Shown: in pieces, positions 54,141 through 59,608 of the stretch
Position numbering within the stretch: the first letter of the stretch is position 1
Layout of the letters: the number at the start of each line of letters is the position of its first letter
NCBI GenBank assembly: GCA_963821525.1
Contig: CAWGED010000005.1
Coordinates: forward strand, 64,001-128,000
Source: an uncultured Gemmatimonadales bacterium
Lineage (GTDB): Bacteria > Gemmatimonadota > Gemmatimonadetes > Gemmatimonadales > GWC2-71-9
Length of the DNA stretch: 64,000 nucleotides
Direction: 5' to 3'
Position numbers and translations under genes: made by a program
Notes under the pieces: generated by a model
Database searches by the model: none
Seen by the model: the letters and a program-made list of their open reading frames with translations, nothing else
Told to the model about the DNA's origin: nothing

Positions 54141-56879
54141 GTGAGCAGTCTGCTGCATAATCTGCCACTGAGGCCGGACTCTGAAAAGGGCGGCCTGGTC
54201 TTCCACCTGATTCCGCACACCCATTGGGATCGGGAGTGGTATCTGCCGCTGGGAGCACTGCGGCCCCGTCTGGTCCGCATGGTGGACGATCTGCTCGACC
54301 GGCTCAATCGGGAGCCAGAGTATCGCAGCTTCTTCCTCGACGGACAGGCCGTGCTGCTGGAGGACTACCTCGCGATCCGCCCTGAGCGACGAGTCGAAGT
54401 CGAAGCGGCGGTGCGGGAGGGCAGGCTCGGCACCGGTCCGTGGTACGTCCTGGCGGATGAGCTGGTGCCTTCCGGCGAGGCTCTGCTGCGGAATTTGCTG
54501 CTCGGCGGCTCGGCGGCTCGGCGGCTCGGCGGTTCGGTGCCGGTCTTGTATTCACCGGACGCGTTTGGGCATCCTGCGGTGCTTCCATCCCTCGGCTTCG
54601 AGTTCGGCATTGAATACGGGGTGGTCTGGCGCGGCATCGCTCCCCGGAAGGCTGGGCGCGATCTCTTCTGGTGGACGGCGCCCGATGGCCGCCCGCTGCT
54701 GGTCTACCACCTTCCGGCTGCCGGATACGAAATCGGCTCGGTGCTGTCGGGTGCCTCGTCCCGGCTCGCGACGGTCTGGAAAGGATTGCGGGAAGAACTG
54801 GTCGCCCGCGCGGCCACGCGGCACGTGGCCGTCTTCATCGGCGCCGATCATCATCATGCCCCTGCCGATCTGGTGTCGATCCGTTCCGGCCTCGCCTCGA
54901 TTGAAGCCGGCAATCAGGTCAGGATCTCGACACTCCAGGAATTCATGGAAGCCGCAGCGGTCGAAGCGGGAGACCTGGCCTGGGTCGCCGGCGAGTTGCG
55001 CGATTCCTACGGATACACCTGGACCCTGCAAGGGACTCAGGGCAATCGTCTCCCCCTTAAGCGCTGGAACTCGGAGCTGGAAAGTCTGCTGGCTCGGCAC
55101 GCGGATCCTCTGGTTGCACTTGCTCTGTGGCGGCGGCTGGATTCGCAGGGTTCGCTCCTGCGACAGGCTTGGCGCGAGCTGGTCCAATGCCAGTTCCACG
55201 ATTCGATCTGCGGTACCTGCAGTGACGACGTGGCGAGATCGCTCGAGGTGCGGTTCGCCGATGTGGAGGCATCGGCCAACGACATTGTTCGTGCGGCGTT
55301 GAATCAAGTGGTCGGCCACGATCCGGATCGAGCCCGGGAGCAACCCGAAGCACGCCGTCCCGCGCTGGTGGTGTGGAACCCGGCGGGTCGAAGGCGCTCC
55401 GGCGTGACGACCGCGGAAATCACCTTCTTCCGGCGCGATGTCCTGGTGGGGCCTCCCGGCCCCCGCAAACCCGCACGGGGTCCCGGCTACAAGTCATTCT
55501 CGCTCCGCAACGCGGCCGGTGAGACGATTCCGGTACAGGCAATCGACGTACAGCAGGGGCTTGAGCGAATCGACGCCCCGCGGCACTACCCCGATCAGGA
55601 TCTGGTGGACGTGGCAATGGTTGCCTTCCGCTCACCGGAGCTGGGCGGAATGGAAACGGCCTTTCTGCACCCGGGTGGTCGCAGTCGTGGGGTGCCACGA
55701 GGGGCGGTGCGAGCAAGCGCCCGGAGCCTTCGCAACGAGGAGCTTGAGGTGAAGGTCTCCCCCGACGGCACCATAGCACTGCACGGACGTCGTGCCACCA
55801 GCCGCTTCGCCGGCCTCCTCGCACTGGAAAGCGGAAGTGACCTCGGTGACACTTACACCTACTGTCCTCCTGCCCGTGACCGGGTGACGCGCCCGCGCGG
55901 CAAGGCTGGTCTGGTCACGCTGGCGAAAGGGCCGTTGCTGGGTGCCTTGTTGATTCAGCAGCGGATGGAGTGCGGCAGGGGGAGCACGCGGGGGAAGGGA
56001 TGGGTCGAGGCCGCTACCACTCTGGAACTCCGTTCGGAAGAGCCCTTCTTGCGACTGATAGTGCACCTCGACAACCAGGCGCGCGACCACCGGCTGCGGC
56101 TTCGGCTGCCCACGGGACTGCGGGGCGTCGAGAGTGTGGCCGGCACCCAGTTCGGAAGTATTCGCCGGCTGCCCGGGTCAATACGAAGCGCCAGGATCGA
56201 GGCACTCCGGGAACGCGGGGGACTCCGCGAGAAACCGGGGGCCACGGATCCGGCACAGCGATACGTCGCGGTGGCGCGGGGGCCTCGTGGACTGGCCTTG
56301 CTCGCTCCCGGCTTCTTCGAGTTTGAACTCACCGGCGACGGCGACCTGGTCCTCACATTACTGAGATCGGTCGGAGAGCTCTCCCGCTCAGACCTCGACT
56401 GCCGTCCCGGTCACGCCGCCTGGCCCATGCCTACGCCCCTCGCGCAATGCCTCGGCAACTCACGGCTCGAGCTGGCATTGGCCCCGATCACGGAACAGGA
56501 CATCGCGGCTCCTTCACGGCTGGAGCGATTGTGGGAGGATGCCTTCGTCGGACTGTCCACCCGTTGGCTCAGGTACTATTGCGGGACCCAGGGTGCGAGG
56601 ACGCCGGGGCTCGACGCCATTGAACTGCAAGGCGACGGTCTCGTGCTTTCGACGCTCAAGCCCGCCGAAAGCGGCGAAGGCATCGTCCTCCGCTGCTTCA
56701 ATGCGCTGGAGTCGGCGGTCGAAGGCGCAATCCTTCTGGGGAGCCCGGCGCGGTCGGCGGCGAGAGTTCGGGCCGACGAATCACATCCGATTCCACTTCC
56801 GCTCGAGAGGGGCGGCCGCCGCATTCCGTTCCGAGCGGAGCCTCGGGCCACCCTGTCGTTCCACCTGAACCCCGCCTGA
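54141..56879 (+). CDS. Glycoside hydrolase family 38 (alpha-mannosidase-like)
   Basis: HTHWDREWY, FFLDGQ, GPWY, PDAFGH, FHDSICGT, DHRLR; start uncertain. Confidence 0.9.
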   Translation: MSSLLHNLPLRPDSEKGGLVFHLIPHTHWDREWYLPLGALRPRLVRMVDDLLDRLNREPEYRSFFLDGQAVLLEDYLAIRPERRVEVEAAVREGRLGTGPWYVLADELVPSGEALLRNLLLGGSAARRLGGSVPVLYSPDAFGHPAVLPSLGFEFGIEYGVVWRGIAPRKAGRDLFWWTAPDGRPLLVYHLPAAGYEIGSVLSGASSRLATVWKGLREELVARAATRHVAVFIGADHHHAPADLVSIRSGLASIEAGNQVRISTLQEFMEAAAVEAGDLAWVAGELRDSYGYTWTLQGTQGNRLPLKRWNSELESLLARHADPLVALALWRRLDSQGSLLRQAWRELVQCQFHDSICGTCSDDVARSLEVRFADVEASANDIVRAALNQVVGHDPDRAREQPEARRPALVVWNPAGRRRSGVTTAEITFFRRDVLVGPPGPRKPARGPGYKSFSLRNAAGETIPVQAIDVQQGLERIDAPRHYPDQDLVDVAMVAFRSPELGGMETAFLHPGGRSRGVPRGAVRASARSLRNEELEVKVSPDGTIALHGRRATSRFAGLLALESGSDLGDTYTYCPPARDRVTRPRGKAGLVTLAKGPLLGALLIQQRMECGRGSTRGKGWVEAATTLELRSEEPFLRLIVHLDNQARDHRLRLRLPTGLRGVESVAGTQFGSIRRLPGSIRSARIEALRERGGLREKPGATDPAQRYVAVARGPRGLALLAPGFFEFELTGDGDLVLTLLRSVGELSRSDLDCRPGHAAWPMPTPLAQCLGNSRLELALAPITEQDIAAPSRLERLWEDAFVGLSTRWLRYYCGTQGARTPGLDAIELQGDGLVLSTLKPAESGEGIVLRCFNALESAVEGAILLGSPARSAARVRADESHPIPLPLERGGRRIPFRAEPRATLSFHLNPA
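54501..54532. repeat. Octamer CTCGGCGG x4 inside GH38 CDS
   Basis: Four perfect tandem copies plus a degenerate fifth (TTCGGTGC). Confidence 0.85.
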
Positions 56880-56921
56880 TCAGGTCTACCCCCTCAGCGT
56901 TCCCCCGATCTGGAGAGCAGA

Positions 56922-57357
56922 ATGCGCATCATGATCGTCTTGGCCCTGAGCACTGTGATGACTTCCGGGATCACGGCTCAACAGAAGGAAGTGCTGAAGG
57001 TCCCAGGCGCGGTCGCCGGCCTCCCATTTTCGCCGGCAATTCGGGTCGGAAACATCATCTATCTCTCGGGGCAGCTCGGGAACAAGATGGGGACCCGGGA
57101 GCTGGTACCCGGAGGGATCGGGGCCGAAACCCGTCAAACGCTGGAGAACATCAAGACGGTTGTGGAAGCAGCGGGCAGTTCGATGGACAAGGTCTTCAAG
57201 TGCACGGTCTTCCTTGCCGACATCGCGGACTACGGGAAGATGAACGAGGTCTATGCCGACCTTCTTCTCCAAGGATCCGCCGACTCGATCGACGATTGCA
57301 GGCAGTGGGTTGGCGTTGGGGGCGAGGGTTGAGATTGAGTGTATGGCCGTACAGTAA
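56922..57357 (+). CDS. RidA/YjgF-family protein with signal peptide, frameshift at ~57260
   Basis: FSPAIRVG, LSGQLG, VFLAD, MNEVY, then PPTRST...VEIECMA in the next frame. Confidence 0.85.
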
Positions 57358-57358
57358 A

Positions 57359-57440
57359 AGCGTGAGAAGTGAGAGGTGAGAAGTGAGAGGGAACAGCCTT
57401 GAGGACGTGAGAAGTGAGAAGGAAAAGCGGAGAAGTGGGA
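57359..57440. repeat. Heptamer array GTGAGAA/GTGAGAG (left arm)
   Basis: ~9 perfect or degenerate units starting right after the RidA stop. Confidence 0.9.
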
Positions 57441-57535
57441 AGGGCGGCGTCCCGCTAACGCGTTATAATTGTTTGCCTGCGGATTACCGGGGTCACTTAG
57501 TAGGCGCTGCTTCGGTGTCCCGATCTTCACGCTGT

Positions 57536-57963
57536 ATGCGCAGATCGACAAGACTCTCCACGCATGGATTGAGGCTCACCGAGTAGTCAACTTGGTCTTC
57601 GATTTCTGCCGAAACCGTCCTGGCGGTCCGTAGGCTAGAGGAGCGGTTTTGACCAGCTGCAGCGAGCATCGCTTTCGCATGTTCAATTGAATATCGCCGA
57701 AGGTTATGCCCGTAGACATCCGAAGCAGTTCCTGAATCGAGCCTCCAGATCGCTTATGGCTCTGCCGAGTTGAAACCACGCGTACTAATGGTGAACTGCT
57801 CCAGACTTCGGCGACGTGGTCTGATCGATGATGGGGCCTGCCCAACAGCGCTGGGGTACTCGAAGCACTCGCGACGGTGCCAGCGAACGTGCTCCGAATA
57901 GGGCCTTCTCGAGCGCGATCCGAGCCCGTCCATCTTACTGACTCACGTCTGCACGCCATCTAG
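57536..57963 (+). pseudogene. Four-helix-bundle protein (23S rRNA IVS protein / Avd-like), multiply frameshifted
   Basis: Fragments KTLHAWIEAHRVVNLVFDFC, DQLQRASLS(H)VQLNIAEGYARRHPKQFLN (57651-), LQIAYGSA (57743-), VET match the family pattern W...QL.RA..S...NIAEG....F...L.IA.GS..E. Confidence 0.8.
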
Positions 57964-57975
57964 CTGCAAACGCTC

Positions 57976-58007
57976 CTTCTCACCTCTCACTTCTCACCTC
58001 TCACGCT
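57976..58007. repeat. Heptamer array CTTCTCA/CCTCTCA (right arm, inverted)
   Basis: Reverse complement AGCGTGAGAGGTGAGAAGTGAGAGGTGAGAAG closely matches 57359-57390. Confidence 0.9.
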
Positions 58008-58776
58008 GTTCCTGTCTCGCCTTAAGGATGACATCCGGCCGGTTAGTCACCATGCCGTTCGCGCCGTTCGCCCACAGTCGGCGGGCTAGCGCGGGATCGT
58101 CTACCGTCCACACATGAACTGAGGCTCCGCGGGCGTGGGCAGCTCGCACGAAGCGTCGAGTCGGGACCGGCAAGAACTTGAAGCGATCGGGAACGGCGAA
58201 ACTGCGGCAGGCAGGGTCGGGCTCGCCCCAGCGGAAATAGAGTCGGGCGATATCGCGCCGCGATGCGCCGAGGTGGAATGGCGGGGCACGAAACGCCTGT
58301 AGCGACCGCCAGTCTGAGCCGGCGAGGACAGCCCGAGCAGCGGCGCCGGTTTCCCGGAGCACCCTCGCAATTGCGTCCTGCGCTCCCGGTTCCTTCACCT
58401 CGATAAGCAGAGGAACGGCTGGAAGATCTTCAATGACCTGGCGCAGCCGCGGAATCCTTACGCCCTTCCCCCGCCACGGATAGTCTCGGCCTGCATCCGG
58501 GGTGAACCGAAAGCCGGCATCCACCTGGTCCAGCTCTTTGAGCGTATGCAGCCGGATAGGGCCGACCGCATCAGTGGTGCGCTCCAAGGTCGGGTCGTGC
58601 AGCACCACGGCCTCGCCATCCCGGGTGACCCGCACGTCGAACTCCAAGGCGTCTGCGCCCTGCTCCAAGGCCAGGTGGAATGAGGCCATGGTGTTCTCCG
58701 GCGCATAGGCGGCCGCGCCCCGATGCCCAATGATGGGTCGGGCGGCGAGATCAAGCAGCAGCGCGGCCGGGTCCAT
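57994..58776 (-). CDS. Glycerophosphodiester phosphodiesterase
   Basis: IGHRG, APENT, EFDV, HDPTLERTT, IEVK, VWTVD. Confidence 0.92.
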   Translation of the reverse strand: MDPAALLLDLAARPIIGHRGAAAYAPENTMASFHLALEQGADALEFDVRVTRDGEAVVLHDPTLERTTDAVGPIRLHTLKELDQVDAGFRFTPDAGRDYPWRGKGVRIPRLRQVIEDLPAVPLLIEVKEPGAQDAIARVLRETGAAARAVLAGSDWRSLQAFRAPPFHLGASRRDIARLYFRWGEPDPACRSFAVPDRFKFLPVPTRRFVRAAHARGASVHVWTVDDPALARRLWANGANGMVTNRPDVILKARQEQRER

Positions 58777-59608
58777 GCTGACGTAATGCGTCACCGATCA
58801 GCGCCGTCGCCAGAACCACGAGCACCAGGGCGATTCCGGGCGCCACAGCAACCCAGGGTGCGTTGACCAGGGTATCTCGACCGGAGGCGATCATCCCGCC
58901 CCACGACGGTGTGGGAGGCTGGACTCCGAGGCCGAGGTAGGAGAGGCCTGACTCGAGCATGATGGTGTTGCCGAGACTGAGTGCAGCCGAGACGACGACG
59001 GGGCCGAGAACGTTGGGCACGACGTGATGCCATAGGATTCTTCGCTTGCCGGCGCCAAGGGCCACCGCAGAGTCGACGAACGGACGGACCACAAGAGCGC
59101 GGGTCTCGCCATAGACCAGTCGCGCCAGCGTCATCCATCCCGTCAGGCCCAGCACCAGAACAACGAGAGTCGCGCTGGGCCGCCACAAAGCAGCGAGCAA
59201 TAGCAACAGGACCACCCGGGGCAGGGCGAGGCCGAAATCAGTGAGGCCCATGAGCAGGATTCCCACCCTTCGCTGCCAGAGCCCCGCCACCGCTCCCACC
59301 GCGACACCGATGATGACCGACAAGAAAACCGCCAGCACGCCGGTACCGAGCGAGATCCTCGCTCCGTAGGCCAGCCGGGCCCACACGTCACGCCCGAAGC
59401 GGTCGGTACCCAGCGGATGGAAGACGCCGTGAAGATCGGTGCTGAGCGGCGGGAGGAAGCGAGTTTGCACGACGTCTCGCTGCAGGCCCGGGTCGATCGT
59501 GGTGATGAGGGGCGCGGCAAGGGCGGCCAGCACGAAAAGCAGCAACACCAACGCCGCGGCCTTGCCGATCGTGTCCAGCGTTCCCACCCACCGCGCCACT
59601 CTAGCCAT
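58751..59608 (-). CDS. Peptide/nickel ABC transporter permease (DppC-like)
   Basis: LGTDRFGRD, HVVPN, ESGLSYLGLG, PSWG. Confidence 0.92.
   Translation of the reverse strand: MARVARWVGTLDTIGKAAALVLLLFVLAALAAPLITTIDPGLQRDVVQTRFLPPLSTDLHGVFHPLGTDRFGRDVWARLAYGARISLGTGVLAVFLSVIIGVAVGAVAGLWQRRVGILLMGLTDFGLALPRVVLLLLLAALWRPSATLVVLVLGLTGWMTLARLVYGETRALVVRPFVDSAVALGAGKRRILWHHVVPNVLGPVVVSAALSLGNTIMLESGLSYLGLGVQPPTPSWGGMIASGRDTLVNAPWVAVAPGIALVLVVLATALIGDALRQHGPGRAAA

Follow-up and report, generated by a model that had tools for sequence, protein, structure and literature searches.

The 64,000-nucleotide stretch of DNA analysed in this work (the window) carries a cassette of ~600 bp at the junction of two convergent genes. 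The cassette consists of a four-helix-bundle gene that is enclosed by inverted arrays of tandem heptamers. Comparison of contigs and genomes shows that the cassette is present, absent, replaced or inverted at this same junction among congeners. Support for the cassette and for its allele states is strong. The window is part of contig C5 of the source genome (G000), which is 81% complete and comprises 19 contigs. The features of the locus are as follows.

56922 to 57357, plus strand: left flank, RidA/YjgF-family gene (ridA; PF01042, 81 bits), an intact 144-aa ORF in the metagenome contig L096
57362 to 57443, plus strand: left arm, tandem GTGAGA(A/G) heptamers in two blocks (units at 57362-57389 and 57407-57443)
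57444 to 57535, plus strand: spacer with a promoter-like motif of putative function (GGT(C)A near 57491-57495 and GATCTT at 57522-57527)
57536 to 57963, plus strand: four-helix-bundle gene (TIGR02436/PF05635), frameshifted in the assembly, intact with 126 aa in L096, L097 and L138
57812 to 57938, no strand: probable blend zone, where sequence comparison places pieces of an opposite-orientation allele interleaved with the 3' end of the forward gene
57976 to 58004, minus strand: right arm, inverse heptamer array, which contains the GDPD stop codon and codes for the last GDPD residues
57994 to 58794, minus strand: right flank, glycerophosphodiester phosphodiesterase gene (GDPD; PF03009, 150 bits), convergent with ridA

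The initial annotation, which was made from the letters of the window, had described GTGAGAA/GTGAGAG arrays and their inverse around a segment of lower GC. The arrays and their inverse are real, with the first unit at 57362, 3 bases after the 57359 that had been given. The arms are complementary over two 22-nt blocks (100%) and a 51-nt extension (80%), and they pair in the folded RNA (z -4.35, 20 shuffles). The GC content of the enclosed segment is indeed lower (0.54-0.56) than that of the flanks (~0.65). The three peptides that had been listed are present in frames +1, 0 and +2. The arms had also been said to touch both flanking stop codons, and this is the case: the left arm starts 4 bases beyond the ridA stop codon (TAA, 57355-57357), and the GDPD stop codon (57994-57996, minus strand) lies within the right arm. 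The ends of the cassette are not sharp because the arms run into and change the flanking stop regions. No long direct repeat was found within 56500-59000.

The proposed membership of the gene in the TIGR02436/PF05635 family was confirmed by profile search. The window fragment 57645-57755 alone is above the TIGR02436 cut-off (26.6 bits against 24), and its PF05635 match is under the cut-off (25.9 against 33.8). The intact forward allele acquired 76.4 bits for TIGR02436 (cut-off 24) and 71.6 bits for PF05635 (cut-off 33.8), and the reverse allele acquired 69.3 and 67.6 bits, both over the cut-offs. The model of the allele from a congener (G003) exhibits four helices (pLDDT 96), and its closest structures are 2GSC (Z 17.5) and 2RLD (Z 17.0). 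The initial annotation had related the family to Avd of diversity-generating retroelements (DGR). This likeness holds at the level of the four-helix fold, which is common to both (4DWL and 8UB7; TM 0.73-0.76, Z 13.6-15.1, identity 11-12%), but it is no better than the likeness to unrelated four-helix bundles, since a plant inhibitor scored as high as Avd (Z 15.3). Avd is described as homologous to PF05635 (PMC10053308), and 2GSC as a homopentamer (PMC4990558; likewise a reference title in PMC10053308). Codon comparison shows that the four-helix protein is under purifying selection, because the forward and reverse genes (77% identical) differ by a dN of 0.10 against a dS of 1.2-1.3. Rows with L015 were misframed and were left out of the dN/dS comparison of GDPD. 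Positions occupied by Q, S, N and E are invariant among 25 sequences of the genus.

The frameshifts of the window copy had been ascribed to decay or to support by a subset of reads. Two metagenome contigs (L096 and L097), whose flanks are 97-98% identical to those in the window, contain the gene intact (126 aa) and in the same orientation. Relative to L096, 57 bases are inserted in the window at 57250-57999, whereas the other 250-base bins have 0-1 each; the excess of indels noticed earlier is therefore established for 56000-59000, the interval that this comparison spans. The frameshifts are most likely a consensus blend, as judged from the contigs, in which a majority of forward reads and a minority of reverse reads were merged. 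Among the 349 8-mers of the window that are missing from the forward allele, the G003 reverse allele contains 17 and the L098 contig's reverse allele 19, against means of 3.5 and 2.7 and maxima of 14 and 12 in 300 shuffles. Both the G003 reverse allele (score 58, shuffle maximum 30) and the 3' end of the forward gene align to the interval 57815-57950, so pieces of both alleles are interleaved. The suggestion of a subset of reads was thus partly right: a minority template is likely, but it looks like the cassette in the other orientation and not like an empty site.

Two other sources of the errors were rejected. A reverse allele of the G004 type explains just 7 of the novel 8-mers and has a mosaic score of 113.5 against a shuffle maximum of 120.5, and only the G003/L098 type exceeds the shuffles. 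An ongoing flip of one sequence, or fold-back reads, is rejected because the reverse complement of the forward allele contains 8 of the novel 8-mers (shuffle maximum 12), no better than shuffles. Contig joints that skip the cassette interior with sides of 22-33 nt were set aside, as they are probably from other arm pairs; the only anchored joint of this kind is in X1 record 2 (56777-57350, then 58027). The RNA run X17 is of low depth, with no contig across 57404-57871.

It is very improbable that the window copy is a real decaying pseudogene. Decay does happen at this junction, where four reverse alleles (L098, L099, L103, and L105) have an internal deletion of ~105 nt. However, the differences of the window are nearly all insertions, and these interleave with the reverse allele above the shuffle maxima. 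The extra bases are absent from short-read contigs of two studies, and ridA exhibits the same kind of assembly error, an extra base near 57258 that is absent from an X8 contig. The bin also contains sister-lineage duplicates that are 91-96% identical. The decay proposed in the initial annotation is unsupported because near-identical contigs contain an intact allele, on which purifying selection acts. The G000 bin is a mixture of sister lineages. Small contigs (C9, C11, C13, C16, C17, C7/C8, and C1) duplicate parts of larger ones at 91-98.5% identity.

The relatives exhibit forward, reverse, deleted, gene-less and armless alleles at the ridA-GDPD junction. The initial annotation had named two outcomes that would refute it, the lack of a profile match after indel correction, and four-helix-bundle genes with neither enrichment for flanking arrays nor variation in presence among relatives; neither outcome was obtained. 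In two congeners (G003 and G004), the arms are the same and the enclosed gene is intact, but it is coded on the opposite strand. Two others (G002 and G001) have gene-less arms built of two other units, and the junction in another genus (G016) is without arms. The 14 closest of 52 metagenome loci, several of which are near-identical and hence not independent, consist of three forward alleles, four internally deleted reverse alleles, four with gene-less GTACC-type arms, one with the right arm only, one with a degenerate 8-mer, and one that is armless. L106 has flanks 95-96% identical to the window, yet it has gene-less arms of a different unit. The arm unit is replaced at this same junction among relatives, and the junction state is discordant with the flank trees.

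Comparison of genes with flanks shows that one allele crossed between species (G003 and G004), because the genes are 95.7% identical (dN 0.012, dS 0.155) and the flanks are 80-81% identical. Both orientations of the cassette exist, but as diverged alleles. The forward and reverse alleles (77% identical) are older than their flanks (88-92%); hence, the flip is ancient or there were two separate insertions. The forward gene of L138 is 99.7% identical to L096 and its left flank is 98.9% identical to L098. L138 may be a recombinant or a mis-assembly and is not counted as proof. In both apparent transfers (L046 against L048 and L138 against L096), high identity ends at about the start codon and the upstream spacer differs. 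At L022 (G049), next to the GDPD homologue, a transposase-like element, recognised by eye, lies beside a heptamer half-array at the GDPD end.

The association of the gene with arms extends beyond this junction. All 13 PF05635 matches of G000, 11 of which are above the cut-off, lie between arrays, each with its own unit that is mostly 7 nt and sometimes 8-11 nt long. Inverted arms, defined as an inverted match with a score of at least 14, bracket 51 of 55 family loci of the genus (5 of 60 were left out as truncated) and 20 of 1554 small host genes. They were also found at 62 of 68 loci sampled from about 310 matches in the phylum, and at 59 of 80 loci from other genomes, which are the best 80 of 517 in a search seeded with one protein. 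Arrays are common, so the arms have to be judged against the frequency with which small genes in general are bracketed (20/1554): G000 contains 910 arrays of period 7, against 20-31 at periods 4, 5, 10, and 11, and contig C5 contains 227, against 3 in a codon-block shuffle. Two claims of the initial annotation, that heptamer arms are enriched around four-helix-bundle genes and that gene and heptamer stem form one unit at gene junctions, are upheld. The 60 loci of the genus represent 22 junctions in five genomes.

The alleles of one junction mostly form clades in the protein tree (104 columns, 6 rows dropped). One protein clade with GGGAGAC/GGGGAAC arms covers five junctions, and G000 has gene-less arms at three of the five. 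This clade, whose related proteins share one arm unit at all five, is in line with movement between junctions. Junction-wise clades are also explained by long residence with fast divergence. The arm unit tracks protein similarity only above 60% identity, and the specificity of protein to unit across genera is not significant (p 0.15).

Arrays without the gene are also numerous. G000 has 84 GTGAGA-type arrays and, over all units, ~195 short gene-less inverted pairs. These short pairs are enriched between convergent genes (43/160 against 345/2561) and depleted between divergent genes (13/160 against 448/2561). The short pairs of G000 have a fixed polarity, with a G-rich left arm in 186 of 237. 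Of 195 pairs, 111 have a stop codon in the left-arm unit and 39 on its reverse strand; a run of three such 7-mers closes every frame. A long palindromic MITE-like element has 25 copies in G000, 19 of which are within 120 nt of a heptamer array; the copies at C7:65.2 kb, C7:66.5 kb, C12:247.1 kb, and C19:393.4 kb are at junctions where relatives have a four-helix gene. Other genes of G000 between inverted heptamer arrays are by eye cupin-like, unknown, CBS-like, and SixA-like (C4:19994-20444, C4:21988-22396, C7:75260-75662, and C12:68227-68749). Such ordinary genes probably lie between neighbouring gene-less pairs and are not cargo.

The abundance and placement of the gene-less pairs are also consistent with a domesticated host system. 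The protein would then be a trans-acting reader of heptamer hairpins throughout the genome, acting in termination or in the stability of mRNA ends and autoregulated by its own arms, and gains, losses and flips would be passive by-products. The purifying selection on the protein and the occurrence of the family in 83 of 121 phylum genomes agree with such a role. However, 12-13 divergent paralogues per genome at variable sites are odd for one housekeeping regulator, 38 of the 121 genomes are without a match at E<=1e-10, and arm units turn over at one junction. We consider the host system unlikely, although it is the most plausible of the rivals to the cassette mechanism described below.

The interior is inverted relative to the flanks at three junctions of the genus, all convergent (ridA-GDPD; G000 C5:407 kb, against G003; and G000 C19:393 kb, G001 against G002/G003). 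Among junctions with at least two filled alleles, three of the 8 convergent ones and none of the 7 co-directional ones are flipped (one-sided p ~0.12 by hand), which is not significant alone. The 22 junctions of the genus comprise 9 where the gene is antisense in a co-directional run, 2 sense, 10 convergent, and 1 divergent; the antisense to sense ratio of 9:2 has a p of ~0.065 by hand. For one of the three inverted junctions, the script called the G000 copy antisense because it overlooked a short neighbour, and the class was taken from G003 and by eye. The 68 loci of the phylum sample comprise 28 antisense, 14 sense, 15 convergent, 0 divergent, and 11 unclassified. Five of these 14 sense loci belong to a distant family (f10), outside which co-directional loci are 28 antisense against 9 sense. 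The 80 loci from other genomes comprise 56 sense, 7 antisense, 9 convergent, 0 divergent, and 8 unclassified. Antisense orientation as a family-wide rule is rejected by these counts, and the antisense bias is lineage-specific because sense prevails in other phyla (56 against 7 in the other genomes). The neighbour strands are from simple gene callers that agree at 45 of 48 test loci. The antisense bias accompanies a longer distance from arm to start (medians of 98 and 79 nt against 26 nt), and likewise the A-n3-T motif and the scarcity of Shine-Dalgarno-like sites described next.

The cassette probably contains an internal promoter from which the gene would be transcribed leaderless, as predicted from two upstream motifs. 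An A-n3-T motif that ends 6-8 nt before the start occurs at 26 of 41 genus loci, against 0-10 in shifted controls and 14.6% in the host. Some 38 nt upstream there is another motif, G(G/A)T(T/A/G). The two motifs occur together at 21 of 41 genus loci, 27 of 54 loci from other genera, and 8 of 77 loci from other genomes, against 2.3% of 1957 host genes; the upstream motif was derived from the very sequences on which it was counted, and kin are not independent. Neither motif is present at 8 of 20 antisense loci of the genus. Sites like Shine-Dalgarno are scarce (4 of 41 genus loci against 30%). A GATCTT-type hexamer ends 6 nt before the ATG of the intact allele, a leaderless layout, and a scan of this allele for sigma-70 promoters and terminators returned 0 sites.

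Our preferred reading, to which we assign a probability of about 0.5, is a self-expressed and selected cassette without a mobility enzyme of its own, which host recombination at the arms would swap, delete, flip and install. The cassette would consist of an inverted heptamer arm, an internal promoter, a leaderless four-helix-bundle gene, and an inverted arm, and would fill the space after gene ends. Lineages would exchange junction alleles through homologous recombination by the host. At the arms, recombination or template switching would invert the interior or remove it, which would leave gene-less hairpins; short inverted repeats permit such inversions. New junctions would be entered by conversion into existing arm pairs of matching unit. 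With its own promoter, the gene would work in either orientation, so flips would survive between convergent genes, and the antisense orientation would be retained inside operons of the source lineage. The protein would most likely be a nucleic-acid-binding pentamer, as DGR Avd is, that binds arm RNA or single-stranded arm DNA and favours the upkeep of hairpins. The genomes of the genus are 75-98% complete; hence, a mobility enzyme may be missed.

An enzyme encoded elsewhere is the first of two further explanations. The cassette would be a non-autonomous element, like a REPtron or TIRtron, that depends for its movement on a Y1 (HUH) transposase, a GxxExxY nuclease or a DUF559 nuclease. Genes for these are available in the genus (PF01797 in 4/5 genomes, PF13366 in 5/5, and PF04480 in 4/5), and most examined copies are bracketed by inverted repeats of their own, which implies that families of gene plus repeat thrive here. 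Their repeats, however, are palindromes or arrays of 8-10-mers unlike the heptamer arms, which themselves vary in unit from locus to locus, and neither a target-site duplication nor a shared terminal tag was seen by eye across the junction alleles. Mobilisation in trans therefore seems improbable. The four PF01797 genes of G000 are located elsewhere, with other repeats (C1:35911-36358, C12:7132-7579, C12:49440-49781, and C19:590173-590517; L322, L320, L315, and L324). REP-like palindromes of two types enclose these genes (the C1 copy, and the three whose flanks were examined) as REPtron/TIRtron-like units. The GxxExxY genes (PF13366) at C5:948723, C4:251119, and C8:120644 of G000 (L298, L304, and L309) lie between inverted 8-10-mer arrays with gene-less copies nearby; 11 of 12 genus loci have an inverted-repeat score of at least 14, a cassette-like layout with a nuclease-fold gene. 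The DUF559 genes include C19:1071286 and C19:770210 of G000 (L329 and L331), and C-rich palindromic repeats bracket 5 of 6 genus loci examined.

The second explanation is an intervening sequence (IVS) at the level of mRNA. The arms would pair in the transcript, RNase III would excise the loop as in 23S rRNA, and the Avd-like protein with a reverse transcriptase (RT) in trans would copy it to new sites. The pairing of the arms in the folded RNA, the fold match to Avd, and the scarcity of divergent sites (1/22 genus junctions; 0/57 and 0/72 other classified loci) are in line with this, as is the IVS of Coxiella burnetii, which is described with this ORF, a 28-bp stem and heptamers (PMC4990558). 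On the other hand, no match to the RT profile PF00078 was found in 4 of 5 genus genomes, including G000 (81% complete) and G001 (98% complete). The loop excised from an operon transcript would usually be the antisense strand in the source lineage, the gene appears to have its own promoter, and a cut of mRNA without re-ligation gives no way back to DNA. We regard the mRNA-level IVS as doubtful, nearly on a par with mobilisation in trans.

Among known systems, the cassette is closest in its way of working to an ORF-bearing 23S IVS transplanted to mRNA junctions, and its layout is that of a REPtron, but it departs from each in a defining property. The 23S IVS of Coxiella burnetii (S23p) is described as having a terminal stem whose loop codes for a protein of this family, a 5' arm with tandem heptamers of variable copy number, and a weak or absent Shine-Dalgarno sequence (PMC4990558). 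The cassette has the terminal closing stem as well, but it lies between protein genes (ridA and GDPD in the window) and not in an rRNA gene, and it occurs at 22 junctions in five genomes. It is also inverted, often antisense to the host transcript, and has a promoter-like motif inside. Purifying selection acts on its ORF, whereas that of Coxiella is described as degenerating (PMC4990558).

REPtrons and TIRtrons are likewise described as small genes flanked by inverted repeats, of which many further pairs lack the gene (PMC3733652), and such dispersed pairs are found here. The gene enclosed here is an all-helical PF05635 gene and not an HUH tyrosine transposase (RAYT/TIRYT), and the arms are tandem heptamers, whereas REPtron palindromes are described as GTAG/CGTC-tagged (PMC3733652). 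The cassette differs from a DGR in having no RT beside the gene, whose neighbours are ridA and GDPD, nor a PF00078 match in its genome. Dispersed tandem arrays of 7-8 nt are also reported in Xanthomonas and Nostoc (PMC4692102), Geobacter (PMC2700814), and Beggiatoaceae (PMC4679880). Inverted pairs are among those of Xanthomonas (PMC4692102) and Geobacter (PMC2700814), and the Xanthomonas repeats are stated to be rarer between divergent than convergent genes (PMC4692102). In contrast to these repeats as described, a gene family lies inside the pairs here and many units coexist per genome. The term "four helix" is absent from the text available for PMC4692102 and PMC4679880, and no published link of the PF05635/TIGR02436 family to heptamer arms outside rRNA was found in the open-access literature, supplements and subscription journals aside. 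To the initial annotation this work adds the orientation dimorphism, the replacement of the arm unit at one junction, the internal promoter-like motif, the lineage-dependent orientation relative to operons, and the transfer of an allele between species.

A bolder extension, which is speculative and improbable at present, is that the four-helix protein would be the trans-acting factor of a widespread enzyme-free repeat system, binding arm RNA or single-stranded DNA and promoting template switching or conversion. If true, the cassette would copy, flip and shed the gene-less heptamer hairpins, a long-standing puzzle of bacterial genomes, and a flip at a convergent junction would redirect antisense transcription into either neighbour. 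The findings also imply that long-read bins can make orientation-dimorphic cassettes look like false pseudogenes. PF05635 is large and structurally characterised but has no known function. The cassette ties this family to intergenic heptamer repeats, for whose excess no cause has so far been given. Within the genus, one junction naturally occurs as forward, reverse, deleted and empty alleles, and the cassette has a predicted internal promoter, which makes expression, arm binding and flipping directly testable.
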